From NCBI GenBank assembly GCA_963654705.1, contig CAVKAO010000002.1, positions 16,806-80,805 of the forward strand: a stretch of 64,000 nt of DNA, in the 5' to 3' direction. This DNA is from Oscillospiraceae bacterium (GTDB lineage: Bacteria; Bacillota_I; Bacilli_A; Erysipelotrichales; Erysipelotrichaceae). A program made the position numbers and the translations under genes. The notes beneath the pieces were generated by a model. The model saw nothing but the letters and a program-made list of their open reading frames with translations, had not been told where the DNA came from and did no database searches. Positions 6,302 to 39,477 of this stretch are shown here, one piece after another; position 1 is the stretch's first letter; every line of letters begins with the position of its first letter.

Positions 6302-7606
<1,305 letters not shown>

Positions 7607-8542: not shown

Positions 8543-8640
8543 CATATTCTCCTTTCTTTGATATAGACTCGCCATTAAGGTGCTATGCTTATAACCTTTT
8601 CTGTGCGGTTGAAACCCAATATGGGAGACAACGTATATAT
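8543..8640 (-). promoter_or_regulatory. possible L21 ribosomal-protein leader plus extended -10 promoter (TGGTACTAT)
   Basis: About 95 nt of structured-looking 5' UTR lies upstream of rplU. The assignment is positional only, and I could not verify it against the Rfam L21_leader model. Confidence 0.3.
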
Positions 8641-11700: not shown

Positions 11701-14128
11701 TTTTGTATGTGTTATCAGTTTTACCATAGTTTGTAATAGTACCAGTTGCATTTATTGATAATGTTTCCTCATTTACTAAACCTTTAATTTCTTTTATACC
11801 GGCAGTTAATGCTTCGCCTGTATACTCTCTTTTAGCCGACTCAGTATAAATAGTTAACTTAGCCTTATTTATTTTATAAGTTCTAGTAACAACGCCAACA
11901 TAGTTTTTGATACCTGTTATAGTAACTGTCACTGTGCCAACATTTTTAGTATCTTCACTAAAACTAATTGTATAATCAACATCCTTTGTTAAAGGAACAT
12001 TATTTTTATCAGCAACTATAGGTTCTTGTTTTTGATCTAAACCATTATAAGTAACATCATCTAAATTCCCAACAATAATTCCTTTATAATTTTCCACATC
12101 ACTAGGATTGATGGATTGAGCTTTGATTTCTAATTTTCCGATTGATTCAGTAATATTATAGTTATTACTATTAAACTTACTACCTGTTGTATAGAAAATT
12201 GTATTATCTACACTTCCTACATTAGTAATAGTACCATTAGCCTTTATATCACTTACTTCTCCATCAACAAAACCATCACCAGATACAGTAACTGTAGGTC
12301 TAGTTAAAACTGTTCCATCATATATTTTAGAAGCATTTTCACTAGTTAAGGTTACATTACGTTTTTCAATTGTAACTGTCCCTTGGCCATTAATTTCTAC
12401 TGTTTCACCACCTAATTGGATGTTTTCTTTTACATAAACTGTATATGTACCAGCATCAGTAAAAGTAGGCTTTGTTTCCATCCAAGTTTGACCATCTATG
12501 GAATATCTAATCGAAGTCTTATCTTCAGTAATTAGAGCCTTTGCTTGTTTAGCATATTCTTCTTTTAGTGTAGTGCCTTGGTTAATCGCTACATTTACAT
12601 CGCCAATTGTATAAGCATTTCCATCATACTTAGTTGTAGTATTTCCTACCGAGATATTTGCCCATAAAGCATCCAAAGTATAAGTGTCATTATCATATAA
12701 ATATGTTAATTCGACGCCACCATGAACTATTAAAGCAGATTTATTACCTCTTTCTTTGTCCAACCAGCCGATAAATGCATAGCCATCCGCAGAAGGTTTG
12801 TTATCAGTAACTGTAAATATATCGTTTTTCGCAAATTGCTTATCGTAATAATATTTAAGTTTATTATTAGATGTTTGGGAAATGCCATCTGGAATATTCC
12901 AACTAGCATTGCCTAATGTAAGATAGTAGCCAACTTTGCCACTTTTTTTCTTCCATTCCCATTTACCTGTAAAAGTAATGCCATCTTCAGCCATCGTCTT
13001 TGATGTTTTATCCCAACCTTTAAAAGTCCAATAACCATGTTCATTATCGTTATCAACATCAACTCTAGTAGTTGGTACATCTTTTGCAGTTACAGTTGTA
13101 TTAACAACATAACTATCTGTATCTTCAGGACGTAAATTATAAACCTCTAAAGGTAAATTTTTGCCCTTTGTAGCAGATTCAAATTTATAAGTTACTTGTG
13201 CTTTTTTCGCAATATCACATGTAGCTGTCGCTTCTTTGGTAATTGTAGCAGTTGTAATTGATGTTGCACCACTATTCATAGAAGCAGAAGCTTTATATCC
13301 AACCGTTCCATTAACCTTAAGTTCAATTGTTTTCTTTTCGCAATCTTCTTTTGTCGCAACATAAGTAAGAGTGCTTAGGTAAGTACCATCGCTTTGTTTT
13401 TCTAGTTCACCTATATTGCTTACATCAACCTCATTGCCATTAATCGTAATCGAATTTATTACAACGCTAGTAATTTCATCTTTTTTTGATTCTGTTTTCA
13501 CTGGCGTAATTGTTACAGTAAAAGTAATTTCCTCGCCTTCAACTACATCATTAGCCTTATTAGGCACTGCGCTAATTTTCATATCAGGAGATTGTGCAAT
13601 AATGGAAAATTTAACCCCTGTTTTGTTTGACCCTTGACAACTATATCCAAACATACCAATATAGCCTGCATCTTCAGCGGCTTTTACAACATTACTATTA
13701 ACCCAGCTAATATTTCCATAATTTCCAGATCCTACAATATAGTAGTCACCATTTCCATCTGCGTTAATCCCAGTAAACATATAATTGTCTTCAGGCTTTA
13801 CAAAAAATACCATATAGCCACACTTATCAGAAGTGTTGTATTGTTCTAAGGTGATTGTATCGCCAGAATTTTCAATTATATGTAAATCATCTTTTGTTAC
13901 ACTAGATAAATCATCACCAGACTTCCAAGCATACCAAGCAACTGTTGAATGCTCAAAAGTAGGTATAAATTCACCTATATAATAGCTTGTATTATTAGAA
14001 GCTACCGTAATATTTTCTTCATTGTCATCTTCAGCCTTGACGTTATAAATATTAAAGTTTGTAAGTAACATTAATAAAGATAACGCAATTGTAAATAATT
14101 TATTAAAAGATACTTTCTTAAAAACCAT
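8750..14128 (-). CDS. 1792-aa repeat-rich cell-surface protein (putative adhesin) with a C-terminal three-helix membrane anchor
   Basis: It has a signal peptide (..NIYNVKA/EDD). Two GW-type segments resemble Listeria-Bacteroides repeats (GYWTFKGWDK, GYAFIGWLDK). About 12 modules of 80-90 aa follow, each with K.YDG..L ... NY.I ... G.L.I signatures (MBG-like). Then come a Pro/Thr linker (TPTPSPTPTPNVRPTPVRPTP) and three hydrophobic helices in the last 115 aa. There is no LPXTG motif. Confidence 0.8.
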   Translation of the reverse strand: MVFKKVSFNKLFTIALSLLMLLTNFNIYNVKAEDDNEENITVASNNTSYYIGEFIPTFEHSTVAWYAWKSGDDLSSVTKDDLHIIENSGDTITLEQYNTSDKCGYMVFFVKPEDNYMFTGINADGNGDYYIVGSGNYGNISWVNSNVVKAAEDAGYIGMFGYSCQGSNKTGVKFSIIAQSPDMKISAVPNKANDVVEGEEITFTVTITPVKTESKKDEITSVVINSITINGNEVDVSNIGELEKQSDGTYLSTLTYVATKEDCEKKTIELKVNGTVGYKASASMNSGATSITTATITKEATATCDIAKKAQVTYKFESATKGKNLPLEVYNLRPEDTDSYVVNTTVTAKDVPTTRVDVDNDNEHGYWTFKGWDKTSKTMAEDGITFTGKWEWKKKSGKVGYYLTLGNASWNIPDGISQTSNNKLKYYYDKQFAKNDIFTVTDNKPSADGYAFIGWLDKERGNKSALIVHGGVELTYLYDNDTYTLDALWANISVGNTTTKYDGNAYTIGDVNVAINQGTTLKEEYAKQAKALITEDKTSIRYSIDGQTWMETKPTFTDAGTYTVYVKENIQLGGETVEINGQGTVTIEKRNVTLTSENASKIYDGTVLTRPTVTVSGDGFVDGEVSDIKANGTITNVGSVDNTIFYTTGSKFNSNNYNITESIGKLEIKAQSINPSDVENYKGIIVGNLDDVTYNGLDQKQEPIVADKNNVPLTKDVDYTISFSEDTKNVGTVTVTITGIKNYVGVVTRTYKINKAKLTIYTESAKREYTGEALTAGIKEIKGLVNEETLSINATGTITNYGKTDNTYKIDWDNSTAKESNYNIESVLGKLEILKKDVTITSGSASKVYDKTALTNSEVNAIGFVDGEGALYSVIGSQTNVGESDNIFTYTLKENTLADNYNITIQYGKLTVTNAEDVVVTIKGNTLETTYDGENHEVSGYTYTITEGSTYTVDDFKFIKKDATISGKDAGVYNLGLKADQFENLNSNYKVTFIIENDTTLNIKKREVTLTSASDEREYNGSALAKNEVYVSEGSFVEGEGYSYQTSGKQLIVGSSENEFTYSLNDGTKANNYNIKTENGLLTITPLSEEIVVNIKGNSDTFKYDGQNHSVSGYVVTSISNNLYSENDFKYEGSTDVSGKNADTYYIGLDVKKFENTNQNFSNVKFVVEDGALTISKRELRLTSANDSKVYDGTPLTNSTVTVSGDGFADKEGAIYDVTGSITDFGSRKNSFTYDLYSNTLESNYEITKIEGDLSITKVDEVVVTIKGHSDNYLYDGNEKLVSGYDVKITTGSLYKESDFSFNGNLEVKATAAGTYYMGLSEDDFTNNNENFDKVTFVVEDGSLNITKRSVKLSSDSDSKIYDGTALTKPEVTIGGDGFVKGEANAIATGSITDKGDVINTIEIVNKNSSYNENNYDIEIVKEGTLTITQAPLTIITYSDKKTYDGSALVGDGKIEGLVDGEKATLIVTSSRTDFGQSDNNSYTINWDSAKESNYKIVNESFGKLTVIKKTITVITESASKDYDGEPLTAGGSVTGLVNDETLSFTTTGRQTSVGSSTNSYSLTWDGTAKKDNYEVEEKLGTLTVNEKANPIPDKKDDVTPTPSPTPTPNVRPTPVRPTPSDITPTPSPSSDTSEDKKEDSSIIVNPSDDSNDDSNNETEKITIDDNVTPEWATKDKHWALINLICVVISMLLGIFLLMSKNEKEEDEEENKNLELENEEENTTQVRHRRWKVVVVIDALLSIILFILTENMTNPMVLVDRWTLLMFVLTLINVVAVIFGRKFHKEEQEEEA
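9330..12380 (-). repeat. intragenic tandem repeat region, alternating ~85-aa and ~90-aa modules (period about 520 bp for the best-conserved copies)
   Basis: Protein modules recur in the form (R/K)xLTSxxxSKxYDGTxLT...SNYxIxxxxGxLxI and VTIKGxxxxxxYDGxxxxVSGY...FxVEDGxLxIxKR. Mirror-image antisense ORFs at 9894-10181 and 10413-10694 resemble each other for the same reason. Confidence 0.7.
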
Positions 14129-21206: not shown

Positions 21207-21887
21207 TTAAAGAAAATCCCCATTTCTAATAATAATTGGCTTTAAGACTTTTACTTTAGTCATAGGACCAATCTTAAGCTTCATTATAACCCTAGATGCA
21301 TAAGGACGCTTATCATCATGCACAAAAACCATCTTCATAATCTTCAGTTTGTATTTAAGACACATGTTATAAATTTCCGGAAATCTTTCAGCCGGATATA
21401 AAGTATATACTTCACCATTATCCTTCATATTCTTTCTAAAAGCCTTAAACATATCATCTAGTGGCAGTGTTTCCTCAAACATCGCTGTCTTATAGAATTT
21501 ATTAGCTCTTACATTGCCCATTTCAAAAAACGGTGGATTACATATAACCACATCAACTTTTTCAATATCCAAGTCTTGAATACGCGAATTGATAAGTTTG
21601 TAATCATCAGTATACTGTTTAAGATTTATATCCGCTAATTCAAGTGGCTCACTAAAAATATCAACACCAATCAAAGTTTTAGCGTTATGATAGTGTGCAT
21701 AAAGAAGTAGCGCTCCATTATTAGTGCCCAAATCAAGAACAGTTTTCCCTTTTAAGTCATCAAGAAACATTCCTAAAGCGGCTGTATCTGAGTTCACCTT
21801 AAACATTTGTGAGTCTTGCACTATTGGATAATTAATATATTTTAAATAATCATTCTGTCTCATTGTCATAGTCCTTTGAAAGTTCAA
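21207..21887 (-). CDS. SAM-dependent N6-adenine methyltransferase, tRNA1(Val) m6A37 (TrmN6/YfiC)-like
   Basis: Contains the SAM-binding VLDLGTNNG motif and the NPPFF catalytic motif. It is about 220 aa. Confidence 0.6.
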   Translation of the reverse strand: MNFQRTMTMRQNDYLKYINYPIVQDSQMFKVNSDTAALGMFLDDLKGKTVLDLGTNNGALLLYAHYHNAKTLIGVDIFSEPLELADINLKQYTDDYKLINSRIQDLDIEKVDVVICNPPFFEMGNVRANKFYKTAMFEETLPLDDMFKAFRKNMKDNGEVYTLYPAERFPEIYNMCLKYKLKIMKMVFVHDDKRPYASRVIMKLKIGPMTKVKVLKPIIIRNGDFL

Positions 21888-23307
21888 AATAGAAAGTTGA
21901 TCCCTCTTTTAGTTTGGATGTCACACCATATTTAGCTCTATGAGCCTCAAGTATCGCCTTAGCAATAGCTAATCCTAAACCAGTAGAATTCTCATTTCTT
22001 CTAAATTTCTTATCTATTTTATAATATCTATCCCATACATAAGGAAGCATTTCTTCACTTATGCCATCCCCTTCATCTTTTACTTCAAAACGAACATAAT
22101 CTTCATTATCAATAATATTGATTTCAATTAGAGTATTATCAGAAGAATATTTAATCGCATTAGATAAGAAATTATAGATTACTCTTTGAATCTTTAATTC
22201 ATCGCCATAGACAATAACACTCTTTAAATTCTTACTTAATGTAATATTTTTTTCCTTAATTAAGCCATCTAATAAATTAATAACATTATTAGTGCAAACC
22301 TGCAAATCAAAATTAATCTTATTAAGTTCAATATAACCAGCTTGCATCTTTGAATATTCTTGCATATCATTGATTAACTTAGTTAAGTACTCACTTTCTT
22401 CAATTATGACATCAAGATGCTTTTTACGCTTAATGGGATCTTCACCCGATATATCTTTTATCATCTCAGCATAAGATCTAATAAGGGTGATGGGCGTCTT
22501 TAAATCATGGGATACATTAGCCAACAAATCTTTTCTAAGTTCATTAATCTTTGATAATTTATCGGTCGCATCATCTAATGTATTAGCCAAAGCATTAATT
22601 TCAGAAAAAGAATCGTCCTCTTTAAACTTTACATCATAATCGCCTTGCGCTAATTTATTAGCCTCCTGTTGCATTTTCACAATTGGCATACTGATACGAT
22701 TAGCTAAAACAAAAGAGGCAATTAAAGCTACAATTATTACTACCAAAGCAATAAAAAGATATTGTCCCATAATAAAGTCAACATAAGAATCCAAAAGTTC
22801 AAGTGGCGTATTAATAACTAAATAATAATTAGCTAAATTAGTGCTTACTTTTTTGGCATACACCAACATTTCAATTCCTGAATAACTCGATATAGCAATC
22901 GTTTCTATTGAATTAGAATTATTAAGCATGGTAATAAATTTTTTAGGTTCTTTAGAAATATTGATATTAGTATCATTTATTTCAATATCCTCATTTAACA
23001 TACAAAGTTCACCTAAAGAATCAGCACTATATACTTTATAAGAATTGGAATTATAAATTAAAGCACAAGCATTATTGCCATTTATAAGCTTGTCAACATC
23101 TCTTACAGCCTTTTCACTTGTTTTGGTATTCAATAGTTCATCTTGAATAGTCATAACGATTGTATCAATCGTATTAATTCTATTTTCGCGATAATAGGGC
23201 TTAATAAAAGCTACTAGTAATATTCCTAGCAAGCTTAAAATAACAATGGAAAAAACAAAGAAATATATCCATGTTTTAAATTTAATTCCCTTGAAATTAA
23301 ACTTCAA
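21850..23307 (-). CDS. sensor histidine kinase
   Basis: Two TM helices flank an extracellular domain. It also has a HAMP-like region, the H-box SHDLKTPIT and the G-box GLGLAIAK. Confidence 0.9.
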   Translation of the reverse strand: MKFNFKGIKFKTWIYFFVFSIVILSLLGILLVAFIKPYYRENRINTIDTIVMTIQDELLNTKTSEKAVRDVDKLINGNNACALIYNSNSYKVYSADSLGELCMLNEDIEINDTNINISKEPKKFITMLNNSNSIETIAISSYSGIEMLVYAKKVSTNLANYYLVINTPLELLDSYVDFIMGQYLFIALVVIIVALIASFVLANRISMPIVKMQQEANKLAQGDYDVKFKEDDSFSEINALANTLDDATDKLSKINELRKDLLANVSHDLKTPITLIRSYAEMIKDISGEDPIKRKKHLDVIIEESEYLTKLINDMQEYSKMQAGYIELNKINFDLQVCTNNVINLLDGLIKEKNITLSKNLKSVIVYGDELKIQRVIYNFLSNAIKYSSDNTLIEINIIDNEDYVRFEVKDEGDGISEEMLPYVWDRYYKIDKKFRRNENSTGLGLAIAKAILEAHRAKYGVTSKLKEGSTFYFELSKDYDNETE

Positions 23308-23956
23308 ATTTATACCCCATTCCTCTTATGGTCTTAATTAGATCACGATACTGTCCAAGTGACTTTCTTAGCATCTTTATATGCGTATCAACACTGCGAT
23401 CATCGCCAAAATATTCCACCTTCCATACAGCCTTTAAAATCTTTTCTCTATCTAAGGCAATATTTTTATTCTCAATTAGATAAAATAACAATTCCTTTTC
23501 CTTAGGAGTCATATCCACAACTTCATCATCAATATAGACATTATAAGCATCAAAATCCACAGTTAGACCCTTATAAACAAATTTTTCATTAGTCTTTTTC
23601 TTATTACGTAAAGCCACTGCCTTAATTCTAGCCATTAACTCTTTTGGTGAAAATGGTTTAGTAACATAGTCATCAACACCCATGCCAAAACTAAATAGTT
23701 TATCTTCTTCTTCTGTTCTAGCTGAAAGCATAATGATAGGCACATCCTTATTTTCTTTAATCTTTTTACAAGCACTAAAGCCATCCAAATTTGGCATCAT
23801 GATATCTAAAAGGATGCAATCATAATCGTTTTTAAATGCTAAATCGATTGCTTGATAGCCATCACTTGCTTCATCACAATCAAATTCATTTACCCTAGCA
23901 TATTCTTTTACAACTTCTCTAATTCTTACTTCATCATCCACAATTAAAATCTTCAT
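23297..23956 (-). CDS. OmpR-family response regulator
   Basis: It has a receiver domain (DDE...LDIMMPNLDG, KP) and a winged-helix C-terminus (RGMGYKF). Confidence 0.9.
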   Translation of the reverse strand: MKILIVDDEVRIREVVKEYARVNEFDCDEASDGYQAIDLAFKNDYDCILLDIMMPNLDGFSACKKIKENKDVPIIMLSARTEEEDKLFSFGMGVDDYVTKPFSPKELMARIKAVALRNKKKTNEKFVYKGLTVDFDAYNVYIDDEVVDMTPKEKELLFYLIENKNIALDREKILKAVWKVEYFGDDRSVDTHIKMLRKSLGQYRDLIKTIRGMGYKFEV

Positions 23957-26900
23957 CCTAATACCTCAATCTTTTTAGCTAGTATACTGCCCACTCTATC
24001 AACATTGCCCTCAAAATAAATGTATTTGCTATTACGTAATGTTTCTTGGTTATTCTTGTATAAATTAGGCATAATCACTACCGACATATCACCACTATCA
24101 TCATAAACATCCACAAAAGCCATCATATCGCCATTTTTGGTCTTGTGTTGTTTGATTCTTTTTATCATACCAAAACCCTTTTGATAGCCAAAATTATTGC
24201 CTAATATTAAAAGAGGCAATGTATCAATGTGATATTTATTTTTAATATCTAAAAGTGGATTAAAACTAAAATAGAAACCTAATACAGCCTTTTCATATTC
24301 AGCCCTAACTTGTTTATTATCCAACACTTCTTTAATAACTGGACCATCATCTAATTGATCAATTAAGTTAATACCAATTGGCTTATTATGCACATAATCT
24401 AGCACATTTGGCAAAGAAGATGTCATTGTATTACGACTTAAAGCGAATTCATCAAAAGCTCCAGCACATATTAAATTTAAGATAACACCTTTATCAACGC
24501 CATTATTACATAATCGATAAACACAACTAATGTAGTCTTTATATGGTCCATTATCATTTCTTTCTTTTACAATCTTTTCACTGCTTGTAAAGCCAACATC
24601 CTTGCATATGGTAAAAGGCATAATGATTTTATTATCTAAAATATTATATAAAGATAGAGAATTATTAATAGAAATGCCCTCTATTTGAATATTTGTTTTC
24701 TTACACTCTTTAACATAATCATAAGTTTTACTACTAGAGCCAATTGTTCCATTTAATAAAGCTTTATAGAAATACAATGGAAAATTAGCTTTCAAATAGG
24801 CCATCTTATACGCAACTAAACCATAAGCAATGGAATGCGATTTATTAAAACCATAGTTGGCAAACTTTAGTATTAATTCATATAACTTTAGCGCAATATC
24901 TTCTTTATAGCCATTTTTAATACAACCACTTACAAATTCTGGCTTTAGCTTTTCTAGTTCACTAGCCTTCTTTTTAGACATAGCTCTTCTTAATAAATCC
25001 GCTTTACCCAAACTAAAACCAGCTAGCTTTCTAGCAATCAACATAATCTGTTCTTGATAAACAATAATGCCATAGGTCTCAGACAATATTGGTCTTAACT
25101 CTTCAACTAAGTAAGTTATTTTTTCAGGATGAGCGCGATTTTGCAAAAACACAGGAATGTTTTCCATGGGTCCTGGCCTAAATAAAGCAATCATCATACT
25201 TAATTCCTCAAAAGAATTAGGTGACATTTTCCTAGCTAAGTTCATCATGCCACTAGATTCAAGTTGAAACACTCCCAAAAGATTAACATCCTTAATAAGT
25301 TTAAAAGTCTTTTGATCATTTAAAGGAATATTATTTAAATTAAAGTCTTGATTAAGTTTAATATCATCAACAATCTCAGCAATAATACCTAAATTTCTTA
25401 ATCCTAAAAAATCCATCTTAATTAGACCCATTTCCTCTAAAAACTCAGCAGTATATTGAGTAGAATACAAGTCATTTTCAACTCTAACCGTTGGAACAAC
25501 ATCATCCAACTTCTTACTAGAAAAGACAATGCCTGCCGCATGGGTTGATAAGTGTCTTGGAAAGCCTTCAAGTTTTAGACATATATTAAATAAATCACGG
25601 AATCTTTGTTCACTATTAATCTTTTGTTTAAATAATGGTACATTATCATAAGCCTTCATTAAAGAATCACTATAGGCAAACGGAACTAGTTTACAAAGTG
25701 AATCAATTTCAATATTAGGATAATTTAAGACCCTACCTACATCTCTTATGACCTGTTTTACCTTAAGGGTACCAAAAGTAATAATATGGGCAACATGATC
25801 CATGCCATATTTTTCTTTAACATAGGCTACCACTTCATCTCTTTCATCATCTGGAAAATCCGTATCAATATCAGGCATCGATATTCTTTCTGGATTTAAA
25901 AATCTTTCAAATAATAGGCCATATTTAATTGGATCTATTTCTGTTATACCAAGACAATAAGAAACTAAAGACCCTGCTGCACTACCTCTTCCTGGGCCCA
26001 CAATGATATTTCTTTTTTTAGCATACAAAATAAAGTCATAAACAATCAAAAAGTAGTCTTCAAAGTGCATCTTTAAAATTACACTTAATTCATACTCCAG
26101 TCTTTTCTTATAAGTATCATTAATGTTATTTTTAAGTCTTCTTTTTAGCCCTTCTTTACATAAAGCAATTAAATAATCTTTGCTTGAAACATTATTAGGT
26201 GTTTGATACTTCGGCAAGCTTGTTTTAAAAGAAAATAATACATTACACAAACTAGCAAATCTATCACTATTATCCATTTCTTCTTTAGTATATAGTTCGC
26301 TTAATTCTCTTTCATTTAAAAAATGACGGCCTTTTTCAAAATAAGCATTCTTATCTAAAGTTTTCTTGTCTCTAATACACTTTAATATTTCAAATTCTTT
26401 ATAGTCTTCTTTTTCTAAATAATATATTCTAGGTAAAGCAACAGTCTTTAAATTATGCTTTTTATATGTAGCACTTAAATGTTCATCACGATTAATATTA
26501 AAAGCGATATTATGGTCCATTAAGCCCAAATAATAATCACCATATATCTTTTCTTGATAATCTAGGCATTTATCAATATCACCTTTTTGTTCATAGACAA
26601 TAGTAAGTGGACAATTATCTGAAGGAACGACCAATAAGCAATTATCACGATATTTATTAAGTATCTCTAAATTAATAAAAGAAGTATCATTGTCATTAAT
26701 ATATGAAGAAAGTTTAACTAAGTTTAGATAGCCATCATCGTTTTTTGCATATAAAAACAAAGGATACTTACGGCCATCTAATAATATTTCAAATTCAAGT
26801 CCATAAATATCTTTAAGGCCTTGGCTTTGGCATATATGATGAAAAGATGCACTGGCAAACAGTACATTTTTATCAACAATACCTAATGATGTATAGCCTA

Positions 26901-26988
26901 ATTCCTTAGCTTTTGCAACACTTTTTTTAAGCTCACACATACTGCTTAATAAGCTATAAACACTCTTAAGATATAAAGCACTTTGCAT
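23953..26988 (-). CDS. dnaE: DNA polymerase III alpha subunit (DnaE type)
   Basis: 1011 aa with an N-terminal PHP domain, the polymerase core (PDIDTDF, MDFLGLRNL) and a C-terminal OB fold. The ATG at 26988 has no SD and lies 6 nt after TATAAT (27000-26995). Confidence 0.9.
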   Translation of the reverse strand: MQSALYLKSVYSLLSSMCELKKSVAKAKELGYTSLGIVDKNVLFASASFHHICQSQGLKDIYGLEFEILLDGRKYPLFLYAKNDDGYLNLVKLSSYINDNDTSFINLEILNKYRDNCLLVVPSDNCPLTIVYEQKGDIDKCLDYQEKIYGDYYLGLMDHNIAFNINRDEHLSATYKKHNLKTVALPRIYYLEKEDYKEFEILKCIRDKKTLDKNAYFEKGRHFLNERELSELYTKEEMDNSDRFASLCNVLFSFKTSLPKYQTPNNVSSKDYLIALCKEGLKRRLKNNINDTYKKRLEYELSVILKMHFEDYFLIVYDFILYAKKRNIIVGPGRGSAAGSLVSYCLGITEIDPIKYGLLFERFLNPERISMPDIDTDFPDDERDEVVAYVKEKYGMDHVAHIITFGTLKVKQVIRDVGRVLNYPNIEIDSLCKLVPFAYSDSLMKAYDNVPLFKQKINSEQRFRDLFNICLKLEGFPRHLSTHAAGIVFSSKKLDDVVPTVRVENDLYSTQYTAEFLEEMGLIKMDFLGLRNLGIIAEIVDDIKLNQDFNLNNIPLNDQKTFKLIKDVNLLGVFQLESSGMMNLARKMSPNSFEELSMMIALFRPGPMENIPVFLQNRAHPEKITYLVEELRPILSETYGIIVYQEQIMLIARKLAGFSLGKADLLRRAMSKKKASELEKLKPEFVSGCIKNGYKEDIALKLYELILKFANYGFNKSHSIAYGLVAYKMAYLKANFPLYFYKALLNGTIGSSSKTYDYVKECKKTNIQIEGISINNSLSLYNILDNKIIMPFTICKDVGFTSSEKIVKERNDNGPYKDYISCVYRLCNNGVDKGVILNLICAGAFDEFALSRNTMTSSLPNVLDYVHNKPIGINLIDQLDDGPVIKEVLDNKQVRAEYEKAVLGFYFSFNPLLDIKNKYHIDTLPLLILGNNFGYQKGFGMIKRIKQHKTKNGDMMAFVDVYDDSGDMSVVIMPNLYKNNQETLRNSKYIYFEGNVDRVGSILAKKIEVLG

Positions 26989-32531: not shown

Positions 32532-34538
32532 CTAATCTATATCGTCATTCTTTAGATCTTTTGCAGCAGCAGCAATAACTTTTTCCGCAACATTATTAGG
32601 AGCTGGTTCATAACGATCAAAGTCCATAACATAGGTACCTCTGCCCTTACTCATACTTCTAAGTTCAGTTGCATACTTTTGCATTTCAGCCATTGGCACC
32701 TCCGCATCAATAGTTGCATAACCATCTTCTGTATGACCAGTATCCATAATCATGCCTCTACGTTTATTAAAATCACCAATCAAATCACCAACATATTTTT
32801 CAGGAGTAATTACATGTACCTTACCAATTGGTTCTAACAAAATTGGATTAGCCTTAGGAATACCATTTTTAAAGGCAATCTTAGCAGCCGCTTCAAACGA
32901 ATTAGGCTTTGAATCAACCGGATGATATGAACCATCATATAAAGTAGCTTTTACATTAACAACCTTGCATCCAGCTAAAGGACCTTTAGCCATACAAGAT
33001 CTAAGTCCTGCTTCAACAGATGGGAAGAAATTCTTTGGAACCGATCCACCAAATACTTCTTCAGCAAATACTAAGTCTTCACTATCTGGATTATATTCAA
33101 ATCTAATCCAAACATCACCAAATTGGCCAGCACCACCATTTTGTTTCTTATATTTGCCTTGAACTTCTGATTTTCCTCTGATAGTTTCACGATATTGAAT
33201 CTTTGGTTCTTTTAAATTAATTTCAACCTTATAACGATTCTTTAATTTATTAACCACAACATCTAATTGTTGATCACCAACACAATACAACACTTGTTCG
33301 CCTGTTTCAGCATTTCTAACAAGTTTAATTGATTTATCTTCAATTAAAATCTTCTTTAAGGCATCAGACATCTTATCTTCATCATCCTTAGTCTTAGGAG
33401 AAATAGCCATGCCTAGCATTGGACGAGGATATTCAATTGCAGGATATTTAACCACAAAATCCTTAGTACATAATGTATCGCAAGTTTCCGATGAAGAAAG
33501 TTTAGTTAAGGCCACAATATCGCCACAATTAGCCTTATCAATAGCTTGTTGTGCTTTGCCACACATTGTATAGATAGCGCCAGCTTTTTCATTAACTTCC
33601 TTATTTGCATTATATAAAGGAGTTTGTAAAGTTAAACTACCAGACATAACCTTTAAAAGAGAAATCTTGCCAACAAAAGGATCAACAATTGTCTTAAATA
33701 TTTTTGCCGTAAATGGTGCATCATCACTAGTCTTAACAACCTTATCGTCAACTTCTACTTCACCAGTTTCACAATATACTGGCGCAAAAGAAACGATAAA
33801 ATCTAATATTTCACCAACACCATAGCCAGAAACAGCACAACCGCCTAATATTGGCTTGATTTCGCCATTCTTTAAGGCAGCCTTTAAACCAAATTTCTTT
33901 TCTTCTTTAGTGAAAGATTCACCCGCAAAGAACTTATCCATCATCTCATCATTAGTAGAAGCTACTACTTCCATGATTTCGTTATAGTATGGATCATTTT
34001 CATCATAGATAGTCTTTCTTACGCCAACCATCTTATTGCCATCCATTTCTGGAATCAAAAACGGTACAGCGCCCTTACCATAAACATCAGTAATACTTTG
34101 CGCAATCTCATCAAACTTCATGCCTTCATCAGCATTATTGATTAAAAAGCACATTGGAATGCCCATCTTAATTGCTAAATTAGCAGCTTTTTCGGTACCT
34201 GATTGTTGTCCTTCTTTTCCACTTACAAAGATAACAGCTAAATCAGCAACACTAGCACCAGATATCTTGTCACCCTCATAATCTAAGTATCCTGGTGTAT
34301 CAATGAAATTGATTTTTCTACCCTTCCATTGAATTGGTGCAAGAGAAGAATAAACCGATAAACCTCTTTTAGCTTCTTCAGGATCAAAATCCATGGCCAA
34401 AGTGCCATCAGAACTATTGCCCATTCTATCTATTTCATTTGTTAAAAGTAGTGCATTTTCAATAAAAGTAGATTTGCCACTACCAGCATGTCCTAATAAA
34501 ACGACATTACGAATATCTTTACTGTCATATTCTTTCAT
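32532..34538 (-). CDS. EF-G-like translational GTPase paralog with degenerate G motifs
   Basis: 668 aa with five-domain EF-G-like colinearity (YKKQNGGAGQFGDV, LYDGSYHPVDS). The G motifs deviate from canonical EF-G: G1 GHAGSGKST, switch I RGLSV (not RGITI), G3 DTPGY (not DTPGH) and G4 NNAD (not NKxD). Confidence 0.8.
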   Translation of the reverse strand: MKEYDSKDIRNVVLLGHAGSGKSTFIENALLLTNEIDRMGNSSDGTLAMDFDPEEAKRGLSVYSSLAPIQWKGRKINFIDTPGYLDYEGDKISGASVADLAVIFVSGKEGQQSGTEKAANLAIKMGIPMCFLINNADEGMKFDEIAQSITDVYGKGAVPFLIPEMDGNKMVGVRKTIYDENDPYYNEIMEVVASTNDEMMDKFFAGESFTKEEKKFGLKAALKNGEIKPILGGCAVSGYGVGEILDFIVSFAPVYCETGEVEVDDKVVKTSDDAPFTAKIFKTIVDPFVGKISLLKVMSGSLTLQTPLYNANKEVNEKAGAIYTMCGKAQQAIDKANCGDIVALTKLSSSETCDTLCTKDFVVKYPAIEYPRPMLGMAISPKTKDDEDKMSDALKKILIEDKSIKLVRNAETGEQVLYCVGDQQLDVVVNKLKNRYKVEINLKEPKIQYRETIRGKSEVQGKYKKQNGGAGQFGDVWIRFEYNPDSEDLVFAEEVFGGSVPKNFFPSVEAGLRSCMAKGPLAGCKVVNVKATLYDGSYHPVDSKPNSFEAAAKIAFKNGIPKANPILLEPIGKVHVITPEKYVGDLIGDFNKRRGMIMDTGHTEDGYATIDAEVPMAEMQKYATELRSMSKGRGTYVMDFDRYEPAPNNVAEKVIAAAAKDLKNDDID

Positions 34539-34539
34539 A

Positions 34540-35208
34540 TTAGAATTCGTCCTTTAACTCTTCAGGCACACCATCCCTAAAATAATCTTTGCAAGTCTTG
34601 CCGTTATTATCTTTAGCATTCTTATCAGCGCCTTTATTGATTAAATAAACAACCTCATCAACATTTCCTTGGTAGCAAGCTCTCATCAAAGCATCACAAC
34701 CCTTATTATCTTTAGCGTTGATATCAGCACCTTTTGCAAGTAATAAATGAACTGTATCTACCTTACCAGCATTAATCGCATCAATTAAAGCTGTTCTACC
34801 TTCTTCATCTTTAATTTCAAGATCAGCTCCCTTATCAATTAAATATTCAACAACATCACTTCTACCTTCATAACTAGCTCTGATTAATGCACTTCTTTGT
34901 TTATTATCTCTAGCATTAACATTGCTTCCAGCCTCAACTAGTAACTTAACTATATCTAGTTGTCCTTTTTTAGCAGCGCCCATTAAAGGTGTCTTATTTT
35001 CAACATCTCTGCTTCTTACATCAGCACCCTTATCTAGCAAATATTTAACAATCTCTGTATAGCCTCTTTTACTAGCTCTAGCCAATGCACTTCTTCCTTC
35101 AGTATTAGTTGTCTCAACATCAGCTCCTTCTTCTACATACTTCTTTACAGCTTCAAAGTCTCCTTGTTTTACTGCAGCGTAGAAATTTTTGTTTAATTCT
35201 TGTGTCAT
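34540..35208 (-). CDS. cytoplasmic ankyrin-repeat protein (about 6 repeats)
   Basis: Contains repeated G.(S/T)AL..A...G...VV.YL(I/L).KGAD(V/I)N..D units. I trimmed the start to the ATG at 35208 (MTQELNK), which follows an AAGGAGG SD. There is no signal peptide. The stop lies 1 nt before the EF-G paralog ATG. Confidence 0.85.
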   Translation of the reverse strand: MTQELNKNFYAAVKQGDFEAVKKYVEEGADVETTNTEGRSALARASKRGYTEIVKYLLDKGADVRSRDVENKTPLMGAAKKGQLDIVKLLVEAGSNVNARDNKQRSALIRASYEGRSDVVEYLIDKGADLEIKDEEGRTALIDAINAGKVDTVHLLLAKGADINAKDNKGCDALMRACYQGNVDEVVYLINKGADKNAKDNNGKTCKDYFRDGVPEELKDEF

Positions 35209-35235
35209 GATTTTATCCTCCTTATGATAAAAAAA

Positions 35236-35255
35236 GAACGCACACAAACGCGTTC
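35236..35255 (-). terminator. intrinsic terminator inside the ankyrin/EF-G leader
   Basis: Minus strand reads GAACGCG-TTTGTG-TGCGTTC followed by seven T, ending about 10 nt before the ankyrin SD. Confidence 0.55.
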
Positions 35256-35346
35256 ATATTAAAGAATCAATTTTAAGCAAAACATCCCCTTGGGCATTTA
35301 CCCTATCGTTTTGAAATAGTAGTTTCATTATATTGTTTGCTTTCAT
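35254..35346 (-). CDS. candidate 30-codon leader ORF (MKANNIMKLLFQNDRVNAQGDVLLKIDSLI)
   Basis: My own translation of the leader. A weak AAGG SD precedes it. Its TGA stop overlaps the first two nt of the terminator stem. An open frame of this length could arise by chance. Confidence 0.35.
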   Translation of the reverse strand: MKANNIMKLLFQNDRVNAQGDVLLKIDSLI

Positions 35347-35365
35347 ATTCTTTTACCTTGACTTA

Positions 35366-35394
35366 ATTATAGTAAGTTAATTTTCCAAGTACAA
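35366..35394 (-). promoter_or_regulatory. promoter TTGTAC-17 nt-TATAAT for the ankyrin/EF-G leader
   Basis: Hexamers at 35394-35389 and 35371-35366 on the minus strand. Confidence 0.6.
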
Positions 35395-35458
35395 TAAAAT
35401 TGCTTGAAAAAAGATTGCTAAAATGTAACCGTTTTCATTTTTACTCAAAAAAATGAAA

Positions 35459-35481
35459 AATCTCTAGACAAACTAGAGATT
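35459..35481 (-). terminator. intrinsic terminator after the DUF45 gene
   Basis: Minus strand reads AATCTCTAG-TTTGT-CTAGAGATT followed by a T-rich tract. Confidence 0.75.
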
Positions 35482-35493
35482 CTGTGTTTGATT

Positions 35494-36165
35494 TTAGTAA
35501 ATGCTTTTGATTACAGTCTCATAATTGGGCATGTGATAACTTAATACTTCATGAAATCTTTTAGAATGATTTGGTATGACAAAATGCAGTATTTCATGCC
35601 ACAATACCGCCTCAAGACATTGATCAGAAAAGTGAATCAATCTTTCATTAATGGTAATTAGATTTTTTTTAGGATAGTTTATGCCCCAAGCTGATTTCAT
35701 AATCCTAAACTTGTAATCAGGATTATTATAGTAGCCATAATCTTTTATAACTTTAAGATATTTATTTTCTTTTTCCTTTATTAGTTTAAATAAAACCTTG
35801 CTTCCTTCTTTATATAAAACCTTTAAAACCTCATCTATATCGTTTTTCCTTGAATAGATTGTTAAAGTATCGTTCTCAACATTAATTCTAGGATTACCAT
35901 AAACAACATTTAGCTTATATTTTTTTCCTAAATAATAAATATAATCATTCACAACCAATTTACTAGTTTGATTTTTAATCTCTCTTTTATTATTAGCGTT
36001 AATTATCCAAGAACTCTTTGCATTAATAAAATCAAGAATCTCGTTCTTGCCTAAGTATTTAGGACAAGTAACTTCAAGCACATCGCCCTTGATTCTTAAA
36101 TAAATATTTTTAATATTTTTTCTAACTACTTTAATTTCAAAATATGTGTCACCAATTTTTATCAT
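35494..36165 (-). CDS. YgjP-like (DUF45/WLM-type) zinc metallopeptidase
   Basis: 223 aa with the HEILH zinc motif near the C-terminus and a YgjP-like length. Confidence 0.65.
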   Translation of the reverse strand: MIKIGDTYFEIKVVRKNIKNIYLRIKGDVLEVTCPKYLGKNEILDFINAKSSWIINANNKREIKNQTSKLVVNDYIYYLGKKYKLNVVYGNPRINVENDTLTIYSRKNDIDEVLKVLYKEGSKVLFKLIKEKENKYLKVIKDYGYYNNPDYKFRIMKSAWGINYPKKNLITINERLIHFSDQCLEAVLWHEILHFVIPNHSKRFHEVLSYHMPNYETVIKSIY

Positions 36166-36194: not shown

Positions 36195-37139
36195 ATGAAT
36201 ATAAGTCTTTTAGAACCAATAGGAATAAGTAAGGAAGAAGTTAATAAACTAGCTAAGCCAATTGTCAAGTTAGGTCATAGTTTTACTTACTATGACAATA
36301 AAACAGCCGATATAGACACACTAATTAAAAGAAGCGCAAATCAAGATATCGTAATGATCGCTAATAACCCTTATCCAAAAGAAGTAATTGAAAATTGTCC
36401 TAGATTAAAAATGATTGCCGTAGCCTTTACAGGTATTGATCATGTTGATGAAGATGCTTGTAAAGAAAGGGGTATTGAAATTGTTAATTGTGGTGGCTAC
36501 TCTGATGTAGCGGTAAGTGAACTAGTTATTGGCTTAACTATCGATTTGCTAAGAAAGGTAAAGGAAGCTGATATAGCGACTAGAAATAATAAAAACAGCA
36601 TAGGTCTTATAGGAAATGAGCTAAACGGTAAAACCGTTGGTATTATAGGCTGTGGCAAAATAGGTAAGAAAACAGCCACTTTATTTAAAGCCTTTGGATG
36701 CAAACTACTAGGCTATTCTAGAAGCCCTATTAACTTTGAATTTATTAAACAAGTCGATATTGACACCCTTCTTAAAGAAAGCGATGTGATTTCTTTACAT
36801 TTACCAAGTAATAAAGAAACTTATCATTTTATTGATGAAGAAAAGATAAACAAGATGAAAAAAGAGGCACTTTTTATAAATTGCGCAAGAGGTCCTATTG
36901 TTGATAATATTGTCTTAGCTAATGCTTTAAATAATAAAAAAATAGGTGGAGCAGGAATCGATGTTTATGACATAGAACCGCCTCTACCTATTGATTATCC
37001 TTTATTAAATGCCAAAAACACTATTCTCACTCCCCATGTAGCTTATTTAACTAAAGAGGCTATGATAAAAAGAGCGAATATTGAATTTGACAATGTTCTT
37101 AATTATTTAAACAAGATCTCTTCTAACAAATCTTGCTAA
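36195..37139 (+). CDS. D-isomer-specific 2-hydroxyacid dehydrogenase
   Basis: NAD-binding motif GIIGCGKIGKK, then CARGPIVD and the catalytic His in TPHVAY. I trimmed the start to the ATG at 36195, which follows a GAGGTG SD. Confidence 0.85.
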   Translation: MNISLLEPIGISKEEVNKLAKPIVKLGHSFTYYDNKTADIDTLIKRSANQDIVMIANNPYPKEVIENCPRLKMIAVAFTGIDHVDEDACKERGIEIVNCGGYSDVAVSELVIGLTIDLLRKVKEADIATRNNKNSIGLIGNELNGKTVGIIGCGKIGKKTATLFKAFGCKLLGYSRSPINFEFIKQVDIDTLLKESDVISLHLPSNKETYHFIDEEKINKMKKEALFINCARGPIVDNIVLANALNNKKIGGAGIDVYDIEPPLPIDYPLLNAKNTILTPHVAYLTKEAMIKRANIEFDNVLNYLNKISSNKSC

Positions 37140-37697
37140 GCCTATTACTTTTACAGGCAATGATTCAATCTCGTCTTTACTAAAGAATTTAGATTCATAA
37201 TTAGGATTGCTTGCTTCAAGTATCATAAGTTCATTCTTGTAATGAACTTTTTTAATAGTCACCTCATCGCCTACCATCACAATGCCAATTTGACCACTTT
37301 TTATATAATCACATTTTTCAACATAGACCAAATCACCATCAAAAATATTTGAGCCAATCATTGAATCACCTTTAACGCGTAAAAAGTAGTCACCCTTAAG
37401 CGCATCAGCCTCACCAAGTTCAATATAGCCTTCAATGTTTTCATCCGCTAATAAGTCATATCCTGCCTTAACAAACCCCATTATTGGTTTTAATCTTTGG
37501 CTTTCTTCAACAACTAAATCAACATTTAAACCAAGCACTTTAGACAGCCTATCAATAGTACCTTTTTTAAGCTTTAAACTTTCACCATTTATCCACCTAT
37601 AGTAAGTAGATAAAGAAACACCAACCTCAGAGGCAACATCAATATGAGACTTGTTGTTATCTGATTCATATTTTAAAAGTAATTGTTTTAGTTCCAT
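37107..37697 (-). CDS. LexA-like self-cleaving repressor (HTH-XRE plus S24 peptidase), HdiR-like
   Basis: It has an N-terminal HTH, an Ala-Gly cleavage site (VKAGY), the GDSM serine motif and a downstream Lys (TIKK). It is divergent from a Y-family polymerase gene. Confidence 0.8.
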   Translation of the reverse strand: MELKQLLLKYESDNNKSHIDVASEVGVSLSTYYRWINGESLKLKKGTIDRLSKVLGLNVDLVVEESQRLKPIMGFVKAGYDLLADENIEGYIELGEADALKGDYFLRVKGDSMIGSNIFDGDLVYVEKCDYIKSGQIGIVMVGDEVTIKKVHYKNELMILEASNPNYESKFFSKDEIESLPVKVIGLARFVRRDLV

Positions 37698-37806: not shown

Positions 37807-39063
37807 ATGGAAAAAATATATATGTGTATCGATCTTAAATCCTTTTACGCTTCTGTTGAATGTGCCGAAAGAGGATTAGATCCTTTTAAAATAAATCTTG
37901 TTGTAGCCGATCCAAGCAGAGGACAAGGGGCTATCACCCTAGCAGCTAGTCCAGCAATTAAAAAATTAGGTGTTAAAAGTAGAGGCCGACTTTTTGAAAT
38001 ACCAAAGAATATTGAATATATTATCGCTAAACCAAGAATGTCTTTGTATATGGAATATTCAGCTAGAATATATAAGATTATTCTTAAATATATTAGCAGC
38101 GAAGACATCTATGTTTATTCAATTGATGAATGCTTCATTGATGCCTCTCCCTATTTAAAACTGTATAAGATGTCTGTAAAAGATTTAGCCAAGCTGATTT
38201 TAAAAGATATCTTTAATAGCACAGCTATCACAGCTACCGTTGGTATTGGGACCAATCTATTTCTTAGTAAAGTTGCTTTAGATATAACAGCTAAACATGT
38301 AGAAGATAACATTGGCTATTTAGATGAAGATGTTTTTAAACAAACACTTTGGCACCATACCCCTCTTACTGATTTTTGGATGATTGGAATAGGAACGGTG
38401 AATAGACTACAAAGACTGGGTATTAAGGATTTATATGGTGTTGCCCACTATGATAAAACGATTCTAGAAAAAGTTTTTGGTATAAATGCTAGGATTTTAT
38501 ACGATCACGCTTGGGGAAAAGAAGAAACACAAATTAGTGATATTAAACAATACGTTCCAAAAGGCAGTTCATTATCTAATTCACAAATCCTTTTTGAAGA
38601 CTACAACTGCGAAGATGCTTATTTGGTATTAAAGGAAATGGTTGAATTAAATACTTTAAATATGCGTAATAAGCATGTAGTATCAAATCACATTTCCTTG
38701 TATATTGGCTATTCAAAGGATGTTATAAAGCCTGTTAATGTATCTAAAAAAATTGATAATACTACCAATTCTAATAAGATACTATCTCAAGAATTTAAAA
38801 AGTTATATGAAAAAGCAGTAAACAAAAATTATCCAATTAGAAAAATAGGAATAAGCTTTTCTAATGTAAAAGATGAATATTTTGAACAATATAATCTATT
38901 TATTGATCAAGATAAAGTTGAAGAAGAAAGAAAAATACAGGATGCCTTTATCACTGTTCAAAAAAAGTATGGTAAAAACGCCATTCTTAAGGGATATAAC
39001 CTGCTAGATAAGGCAACAACAATGAAAAGAAATACACTTATAGGAGGTCACAATGCAAAGTAG
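37807..39063 (+). CDS. Y-family (UmuC/ImpB-type) translesion DNA polymerase
   Basis: CIDLKSFYASVE and SIDECFID catalytic motifs. 418 aa. Confidence 0.9.
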   Translation: MEKIYMCIDLKSFYASVECAERGLDPFKINLVVADPSRGQGAITLAASPAIKKLGVKSRGRLFEIPKNIEYIIAKPRMSLYMEYSARIYKIILKYISSEDIYVYSIDECFIDASPYLKLYKMSVKDLAKLILKDIFNSTAITATVGIGTNLFLSKVALDITAKHVEDNIGYLDEDVFKQTLWHHTPLTDFWMIGIGTVNRLQRLGIKDLYGVAHYDKTILEKVFGINARILYDHAWGKEETQISDIKQYVPKGSSLSNSQILFEDYNCEDAYLVLKEMVELNTLNMRNKHVVSNHISLYIGYSKDVIKPVNVSKKIDNTTNSNKILSQEFKKLYEKAVNKNYPIRKIGISFSNVKDEYFEQYNLFIDQDKVEEERKIQDAFITVQKKYGKNAILKGYNLLDKATTMKRNTLIGGHNAK

Positions 39064-39399: not shown

Positions 39400-39477
39400 T
39401 GGGGCGATTGATGGGACTCGAACCCACGAATGCCAGAGCCACAATCTGGTGTGTTAACCAACTTCACCACAACCGCC
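39400..39477 (-). tRNA. tRNA-His (anticodon GTG) with encoded G-1 and CCA
   Basis: Hand-folded as G-1, acceptor GCGGTTG/CAATCGC, anticodon stem CCAGA/TCTGG with loop TTGTGGC, T-arm GTGGG-TTCGAGT-CCCAT, discriminator C and CCA. Confidence 0.9.

Follow-up and report, generated by a model that had tools for sequence, protein, structure and literature searches.

Why should a small ankyrin-repeat protein be encoded directly in front of a paralog of elongation factor G (EF-G) whose GTPase motifs depart from the canonical ones? This question is raised by a locus in contig CAVKAO010000002.1 (assembly GCA_963654705.1), of which we analyzed a window of 64 kb, meaning the whole 64,000-nt stretch and not only the two genes, here called ank and the EF-G2 gene, on its minus strand between positions 35208 and 32532. 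The open reading frames (ORFs), their 1-nt spacing, the five EF-G domains, the ankyrin repeats and all the quoted motifs were found as described in an earlier annotation of this DNA, hereafter the original prediction. We consider it rather probable that the promoter, a leader ORF, an attenuator, ank and the EF-G2 gene form a single leader-controlled operon, which would encode a translation-gated accessory ribosomal factor together with a dedicated ankyrin partner. The pairing of an EF-G2 with an ankyrin gene and a leader attenuator is apparently undescribed; the EFG II family and its motif changes are already known. The parts of the locus are as follows.

35394-35389 and 35371-35366, minus strand: promoter-like site, predicted by reading the sequence, with a -35 box TTGTAC, a 17-nt spacer and a -10 box TATAAT.
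35346-35254, minus strand: leader ORF of 30 codons plus TGA, MKANNIMKLLFQNDRVNAQGDVLLKIDSLI, with AAGGT 8 nt before its ATG.
35255-35236, minus strand: putative attenuator hairpin GAACGCG-TTTGTG-TGCGTTC, followed by TTTTTTT at 35235-35229, 21 nt before the ank ATG.
35223-35217, minus strand: ribosome-binding site of ank, AAGGAGG.
35208-34540, minus strand: ank gene, 222 amino acids (aa), with its ATG at 35208 and its TAA at 34542-34540.
34538-32532, minus strand: EF-G2-type gene, 668 aa, with its ATG at 34538, 1 nt past the ank TAA.
32529-32504, minus strand: hairpin that would terminate the operon, AAAGGAACG-TTAAAA-CGTTCCTTT, 3 nt past the stop of the EF-G2 gene.
35483-35457, minus strand: terminator hairpin of the preceding YgjP-like gene, separate from the attenuator.

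EF-G2 loci were gathered from a one-genome-per-species scan (at least 80 loci, mostly clostridial) and from contig look-ups for 12 proteins spanning the clade, and every ORF at each locus was searched with the ankyrin protein of the window (Ank). At 17 of 17 loci (the window, L001/L088, L005-L008, L085-L087 and L089-L095) whose EF-G2s are 46-92% identical to that of the window, the next gene upstream is a same-strand Ank ortholog of 222-227 aa, at a distance of 1-28 nt. Anaerorhabdus furcosa, Erysipelothrix sp. and Solobacterium sp. are among them, and one of the loci is on a 1.96-Mb contig. No Ank neighbor was found at any of the 76 clostridial EF-G2 loci among the matches listed (41-46% identity), which share no common same-strand neighbor, the largest neighbor family having three members. 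The genome survey for ankyrin and EF-G-like neighbors that the original prediction had proposed thus revealed an adjacency that is not unique to this genome.

In a neighbor-joining tree of 141 sequences, the ank-linked EF-G2s form one clade with 100/100 bootstrap support. The protein P0121 was placed in this clade by the tree before its context was looked up, and Ank was present there too. Only ank and the EF-G2 gene are common to all contexts of the clade, the downstream genes being variable, and the EF-G2 ORF is intact at all 17 loci, with many invariant positions. The operon is conserved in the class Erysipelotrichia and is apparently restricted to it; judging by the organisms named for its homologs, the window itself belongs to the Erysipelotrichaceae. 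No description of an ankyrin and EF-G pairing was found in the searchable literature, in agreement with the original statement that no described pairing of an ankyrin protein with a ribosome-binding GTPase was known. Because the adjacency recurs at 17 of 17 loci, the other flanking genes differ and no prior description was found, a ribosome-associated two-protein module, for which the original prediction had suggested a possible part in rescue, protection or hibernation, would be a reasonable reading of these sequences.

A programmed frameshift at TAA-T-ATG that would fuse Ank to EF-G2 was considered and rejected, as the other loci have gaps of 5-28 nt and a separate Shine-Dalgarno sequence. 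One of the 17 pairs, at L005, lies on a 2.9-kb contig labelled "Oscillospiraceae bacterium" (CAVEWG010000189.1) and is 88-92% identical to that of the window; this contig is probably mis-binned, the pair being otherwise a trait of the Erysipelotrichaceae.

The two genes had been described as a unit bounded by terminators on both sides. Both hairpins exist, but the upstream one lies within the leader and is not a boundary: because it follows the promoter-like site and the leader ORF, and because the YgjP-like gene has its own terminator, the hairpin at 35255-35236 is best read as an attenuator inside the transcript. The 285-nt region 5' of ank holds, in this order, the YgjP-like terminator, the promoter-like site, the leader ORF, the hairpin, the seven T residues and the ank ribosome-binding site. 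The -35 box falls under the threshold of the consensus scanner; relatives of the P0019 group carry TTGAAA and TAAAAT boxes aligned at the same place. The TGA of the leader (35256-35254) reaches into the start of the attenuator stem, and the hairpin, which was found by the terminator scan, has a folding energy of -8.6 kcal/mol (z -2.8). The downstream hairpin at 32529-32504 is more stable (-15.8 kcal/mol, z -6.2) and was unlisted by the pattern scanner, its T-run being partly inside the stem.

This leader arrangement recurs in the clade, with a leader ORF and a hairpin/T-run terminator at 16 of the 17 loci. The related leader ORFs start with ATG, have 18-35 codons and usually a Shine-Dalgarno sequence, and their stops fall between a point 9 nt ahead of the stem and the loop of the hairpin; the hairpins have differing stem sequences and end 24-43 nt before the ank ATG. 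In dinucleotide shuffles, an ORF ending beside the hairpin arose in 5.5-17% of trials per locus (first nine loci), the product over seven lineages being about 6e-8, and the placement of the leader stop is non-random. All three indels within the leader ORF in a six-locus alignment are multiples of three, the peptide core ENTVLGV..SLLVF is kept, and gene callers predicted the leader ORF at L087, L091 and L092. Most of the listed clostridial EF-G2 genes have no terminator in the 120 nt before them. A gathering scan of the window and a permissive scan of the leader with Rfam gave no match to a known riboswitch or leader family at 35150-35550, and no stalling motif was identified. The leader-ORF attenuator offers independent evidence for an expression tied to translation.

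At five of the loci (L007, L008 and L092-L094) the attenuator stem is nearly identical, AAGATGG...CCATCTT plus TTTT, with TTTTAAG before it, about 40-70 nt before the ank ATG. It spans EF-G2s diverged to about 65-70% identity from that of L008, a degree of conservation higher than a plain terminator needs.

The 668-aa protein matches the Pfam families GTP_EFTU, EF-G_D2, EFG_III, EFG_IV and EFG_C, all above cut-off, corresponding to the five domains of EF-G. Its GTPase motifs are located as follows.

34493-34467, minus strand: codons of G1, GHAGSGKST, residues 16-24.
34367-34353, minus strand: codons of G2/switch I, RGLSV, residues 58-62.
34301-34287, minus strand: codons of G3, DTPGY, residues 80-84, with Tyr84 encoded by TAC at 34289-34287.
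34139-34128, minus strand: codons of G4, NNAD, residues 134-137.

The motifs quoted for EF-G domain colinearity, YKKQNGGAGQFGDV and LYDGSYHPVDS, are also present. The profile hidden Markov model classification called for by the original prediction gave a single passing model in NCBIfam, which was also the best one, NF009381 (PRK12740.1-5, an "elongation factor G" subfamily; 733 bits vs a cut-off of 583). The same PRK12740 series also holds the EF-G2 equivalog NF009377 (PRK12740.1-1), whose cut-off was missed (494 vs 890 bits). The protein also fell below the cut-offs of the canonical EF-G models TIGR00484 (519 vs 659 bits) and NF009891 (537 vs 597 bits), of the Bacteroides EF-G2 model, of the tet_protect model NF012153 (278 vs 775) and of the specific Tet models (150-200 vs 900-1425 bits).

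All G motifs had been called deviant, and this is correct in comparison with canonical EF-G: the EFG I motifs AHxDAGKT, RGITI and DTPGH all differ in the window protein. G1-G3 are normal for EFG II, however, and only NNAD is specific to the lineage. The P-loop of EFG II begins with Gly (GHxxxGKT, not AHxDAGKT), and another Gly replaces the cation-binding Asp (PMC3150367; PMC4342817); Ser stands for the Thr of RGITI, with RxxSI in the clostridial subgroup (PMC3150367); G' deletions are frequent and the genes lie outside the str operon (PMC3150367; PMC4342817). Correspondingly, the P-loop starts with GH[AS]G in 10 of 10 clade members and close homologs checked, and 119 of the 120 listed close homologs have [KR]GxS[IV] in switch I. 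The EF-G2 gene of the window has YgjP-like, amidohydrolase and dehydrogenase genes as neighbors, not rpsL, rpsG or tuf, and no canonical fusA was found within the 64 kb. The last P-loop residue differs from the family pattern, being Phe in the window (GKSTF), hydrophobic as in the family, vs Leu in 99% of EFG II; some members of the ank-linked clade have Leu there (GKSAL).

The feature that the original prediction regarded as special, a mutated catalytic histidine, does not set this protein apart, as Tyr or Phe is the norm at this position in EFG II/EF-G2 (bioRxiv 10.64898/2026.05.25.727771 and the counts given next). Tyr follows DxPG in 119 of the 120 listed close homologs. The 150 nearest 50%-identity cluster representatives, drawn from 1.8 billion proteins, have Tyr (65), Phe (25), a different non-His residue (33) or His (4) there, and in the other 23 it was undetected. 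The two best-studied EF-G2s of solved structure carry the Tyr (GHAGSGKTT and DAPGY in Thermus thermophilus EF-G-2, PDB 1WDT; DTPGY in Mycobacterium smegmatis EF-G2, 9K0Z). The Gly of G1, the Ser of G2 and the Tyr of G3 thus make up, as read from these alignments, the signature of the EFG II/EF-G2 family and are not a local mutation. The window GTPase is assigned to this subfamily, with the Phe at the end of the P-loop and the points given below as caveats. In the M. smegmatis protein, Tyr98 replaces the catalytic His and faces away from the gamma-phosphate (bioRxiv 10.64898/2026.05.25.727771). This protein is described as a stress-specific factor without ribosome-dependent GTPase activity (bioRxiv 10.64898/2026.05.25.727771), whereas T. 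thermophilus EF-G2 reportedly retains ribosome-dependent GTPase and translocation activity (cited in bioRxiv 10.64898/2026.05.25.727771). Because the latter, with its Tyr, is reportedly active, Tyr for His is by itself no sign of a dead GTPase. EFG II can replace EF-G, at a slower rate (PMC4342817). In Bacteroides thetaiotaomicron, carbon limitation induces fusA2 238-fold, and gut colonization depends on this gene (PMC6989115).

NNAD occurs in 11 of the 120 listed homologs, all from the window's closest group (at least 80% identity among those examined), the others having NKxD. The original prediction had allowed that Tyr and NNAD might both prove universal in an EF-G2 family with no conserved ankyrin neighbor; the Tyr is indeed usual in the family, but NNAD is confined to this closest group and ank is kept in the clade. 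About 24 aa are missing from G' after residue 178 (34005-34007), only in the subclade of 663-670 aa, and domain IV differs from that of clostridial EF-G2 by GGAGQ for GGHGQ and DSKPNSFEAAA for DSSEMAFK. The G domain erodes stepwise in the ank-linked clade, from 690-aa members with a full G' and NKxD, through the loss of about 24 aa of the G' beta-hairpin in those of 663-670 aa, to the additional NNAD in the window's closest group. That the G' deletion results from the gain of Ank was rejected, as the 690-aa proteins of L006-L008 and L092-L095 have both Ank and a full G'. The AlphaFold model of the EF-G2 has a mean predicted local distance difference test (pLDDT) score of 81.5, with low confidence only in switch I and switch II. 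Its template modeling (TM) scores, 0.77-0.87, are equally good for ribosome-bound EF-G and EF-G2 structures, and the structure and fold search had no power to separate the two. The isoelectric point of the protein is 5.1.

Ank has 222 aa, six repeats and no signal peptide, and it matches Pfam Ank_2 (152.7 bits, E = 4e-45), Ank_4 and Ank (five matched stretches). The AlphaFold model (pLDDT 84, predicted TM score 0.80) has six helix pairs, in line with the estimate of about six repeats in the original prediction. Its nearest folds are generic ankyrins and designed ankyrin repeat proteins (DARPins), which indicate no specific ankyrin relative, and a homolog search returned only generic multi-repeat ankyrins (at most 47% identity, longer) and missed the true orthologs. 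Of these, 15 can be aligned with essentially no gaps, the identity being 47-88% for the nine listed. Positions 5, 10, 13 and 14 of the repeats, which form the concave binding face, carry repeat-specific, nearly invariant and mostly basic residues, for example R39, R44, K47 and R48 in repeat 2, K72, K80 and K81 in repeat 3, and C171, R176 and Y179 in repeat 6; R105 and R110 also lie on this face. The concave-face positions are somewhat more conserved than those of the outer face (Mann-Whitney p = 0.04). This face has 13 Lys/Arg vs 6 Asp/Glu, the whole protein being mildly acidic, and it might fit, weakly, a conserved acidic protein or an RNA ligand. Membership of Ank in the PADLOC family PDC-M72 was rejected: positions 208-373 of the 392 in the profile were matched, and these are generic repeats only. 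The score against PDC-M72A was 222 bits, and models of MzaA and of a Legionella Ank effector were also matched, again through generic repeats only.

Starting from the observed gene content, family assignment and clade-wide conservation of the parts, we infer co-transcription, a direction of attenuation, an Ank-EF-G2 contact and a physiological role, which could be connected as follows. Transcription would start near 35360 and normally end at the hairpin and T-run (35255-35229). A ribosome at or near the leader stop would mask the 8-12-nt 5' arm of the hairpin, and the polymerase would then read through into ank and the EF-G2 gene, so that expression would report the quality of translation, or how closely the first ribosome trails the RNA polymerase. 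Ank and EF-G2, with 1-28 nt between their genes, would be made from one mRNA. The basic concave face of Ank may bind the acidic EF-G2, free or on the ribosome, as a dedicated adaptor, chaperone or regulator, and EF-G2 would act as a slow or GTPase-poor ribosome factor in starvation or stress, by analogy with its studied relatives. A bolder version of this proposal is possible but unlikely, namely that Ank is a regulatory subunit that gates the binding or release of EF-G2 on the ribosome or replaces part of its GTPase switch, and that the leader and terminator are a feedback sensor on the first ribosome. In that case the EF-G2 of this clade would be a factor of two subunits, Ank would be the first partner with ankyrin repeats for any bacterial translational GTPase, and the sensor would supply EF-G2 expression with a novel kind of input.

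Several points weigh against a leader-controlled operon with a dedicated partner. The pairing is confined to one class, which leaves some room for the vertical inheritance of a fortuitous gene order, and the YgjP-like gene is also often syntenic upstream. L095 has a leader ORF but no clear terminator, and no antiterminator pairing to the 5' arm of the terminator was found in full or truncated folds of the leader. A structured-RNA leader was also dropped, as the long hairpin that joins the start region to the 3' end in most folds reached only z -0.2 to -2.3 vs shuffles. The role of the leader peptide of tet(M) has been questioned experimentally (bioRxiv 10.1101/2021.03.24.436905). The test of face conservation in Ank is weak (p = 0.04, 15 related sequences). 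For the GTPase, the raw scores are nearer to canonical EF-G structures (436 bits) than to the solved EF-G2s (343-368 bits); the protein is accordingly placed in EFG II by diagnostic characters, its nearest neighbors and the NCBIfam sub-model rather than by a full reference tree.

We weighed four other explanations. The ank gene could be a co-transcribed passenger, inserted once in the ancestor of the Erysipelotrichia, kept vertically and directed at some other target, with no functional link to EF-G2. The restriction to one monophyletic clade and the weak signal of concave-face conservation agree with this, as does the partial synteny of the YgjP-like gene, which speaks for a fairly stable local order of genes in these genomes. 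However, the pair persists where all other neighbors have changed, down to 46% EF-G2 identity, and ank is lost at none of the 17 loci. Furthermore, the gap stays within 1-28 nt, the common leader sits before ank and not between the genes, and the number of Ank repeats is constant, with no indels, so that we regard a passenger as unlikely. An inducible antibiotic-resistance or ribosome-protection module, in which drug-stalled leader ribosomes would relieve termination and EF-G2 and Ank would dislodge or bypass a translocation inhibitor, is suggested by analogy: a leader ORF with a terminator is typical of Gram-positive genes for resistance to ribosome-targeting drugs, including that of the EF-G paralog tet(M), and FusB is a precedent for a small protein whose binding target is EF-G on the ribosome (PMC12008383). 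This module is quite unlikely in view of the low score against the Tet protection model (278 bits, far below the cut-off) and of an Ank that is unlike FusB-type proteins and matches ankyrin families only. The leader has no identified stalling motif or antiterminator, and the locus seems to be chromosomal and inherited vertically; metabolic and regulatory genes flank it on either side, and none of the neighboring genes scanned (about 6 kb downstream and 4 kb upstream) belongs to a mobile element.

The EF-G paralog might also be a second housekeeping translocase or a decaying copy, its motif changes having no special functional meaning. EFG II does substitute for EF-G more slowly (PMC4342817), and both NNAD and the G' deletion can be read as relaxed constraint on the G domain. 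Yet the ORFs are intact at all 17 loci over 46-92% identity, with many invariant positions, NNAD is stable over 11 related clusters, and the gene has a dedicated regulation and a dedicated neighbor; we find this very unlikely. An anti-phage defense system with an ankyrin sensor, to which the repeat-mediated matches of Ank with PDC-M72A (222 bits) and MzaA might point, is extremely unlikely: the match is restricted to the generic ankyrin part of a longer profile, neither EF-G2 nor the YgjP-like neighbor has a PADLOC match, and the locus has a conserved core-genome position with no other defense genes.

Directly upstream of the operon, the gene at 35494-36165 (minus strand) encodes a YgjP-like/SprT-like metallopeptidase with an HEILH motif and has its own terminator. 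A gene of this kind is upstream at about 10 of the 17 loci (the window, L001/L088, L085, L086, L089-L092 and L007) and is absent at L006 and L093-L095; at L087 the ORF upstream is unrelated, and the short sequences of L005 and L008 allow no judgment. Its position may reflect plain synteny or a looser functional link. Farther upstream, a LexA/UmuD-like gene (helix-turn-helix plus S24 peptidase; 37107-37697, minus strand) is divergent from a gene for a Y-family DNA polymerase (IMS, IMS_C; 37807-39063, plus strand), a pair that looks like an SOS-type mutagenesis cassette. Ordinary chromosomal markers are tRNA-His (39400-39476, minus strand) and the Obg GTPase gene (6302-7600, minus strand), and a gene for a DnaE-type Pol III alpha subunit (23953-26988, minus strand) stands beside a two-component system (21850-23956). 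An ORF of 1792 aa at 8750-14128 (minus strand), with SHIRT and MBG domains the only ones recognized, is probably the gene of a large surface protein, with an L21-leader RNA (Rfam RF00559) a short way downstream at 8555-8620.

Few paralogs of bacterial translation factors are as widespread as EFG II/EF-G2, whose role has been called unknown or organism-specific (PMC4342817). The clade described here offers a candidate interactor of EF-G2, and also a cis-element from whose inducing condition one could learn when EF-G2 is required. The operon is present in a cultured member of the Erysipelotrichia, Anaerorhabdus furcosa, in addition to the Erysipelothrix and Solobacterium genomes. As Erysipelotrichaceae are common in gut and rumen, Bacillota may have their own version of the theme of translation during starvation that is seen in Bacteroides. 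Should the idea of a partner be wrong, the correction of the annotation would stand, Tyr being the family norm and the upstream hairpin an attenuator.

Known systems resemble parts of this operon. FusB-type proteins are likewise small accessory proteins that act by direct binding to a member of the EF-G family (PMC12008383); for Ank, such binding is a proposal. They have an unrelated fold, act on canonical EF-G by rescuing it from fusidic acid, and are usually acquired, whereas Ank is a conserved operon partner. Yar1 is a small eukaryotic ankyrin-repeat escort of the ribosomal protein uS3. Escorts of this type are similar to Ank in their size of about 200 aa, in consisting of ankyrin repeats only and, in the case of Yar1, in serving a single dedicated client in translation; they are eukaryotic and have no sequence kinship with Ank beyond the repeat, and the client of Ank is putative.

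In Tet(M)/Tet(O) with the orf12 leader of Tn916, as in the window, an EF-G paralog comes after a brief leader ORF and an intrinsic terminator, an arrangement interpreted as transcription attenuation. The window operon differs in failing the Tet scores, in being chromosomal and vertically inherited and in having the extra ankyrin gene, and the function of the tet(M) leader peptide is disputed. In E. coli attenuators of the pyrBI type, a translating ribosome physically masks the terminator. In the window and its relatives the leader ORF similarly ends close to the 5' arm of the terminator or within it, and ribosome occupancy, not an alternative hairpin, would prevent termination; the window leader has no evident nucleotide-sensing pause context, and the genes that would be regulated are translation factors.

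The nearest counterparts of the GTPase are the EFG II/EF-G2 proteins (1WDT, 9K0Z and B. thetaiotaomicron 8DMF), which share with it the five domains, Gly for the Ala and Asp of G1, Ser in G2, Tyr in G3, a shortened G', a gene with no str-operon genes beside it and, by comparison with the predicted model, the fold (TM 0.77-0.86). The window clade differs in its own changes in domain IV, in the extra G' deletion of about 24 aa in the 663-670-aa subclade and in the NNAD of the window group. Whereas the described EF-G2 genes have no reported partner gene, the window clade has a dedicated ank gene and a leader-ORF attenuator.

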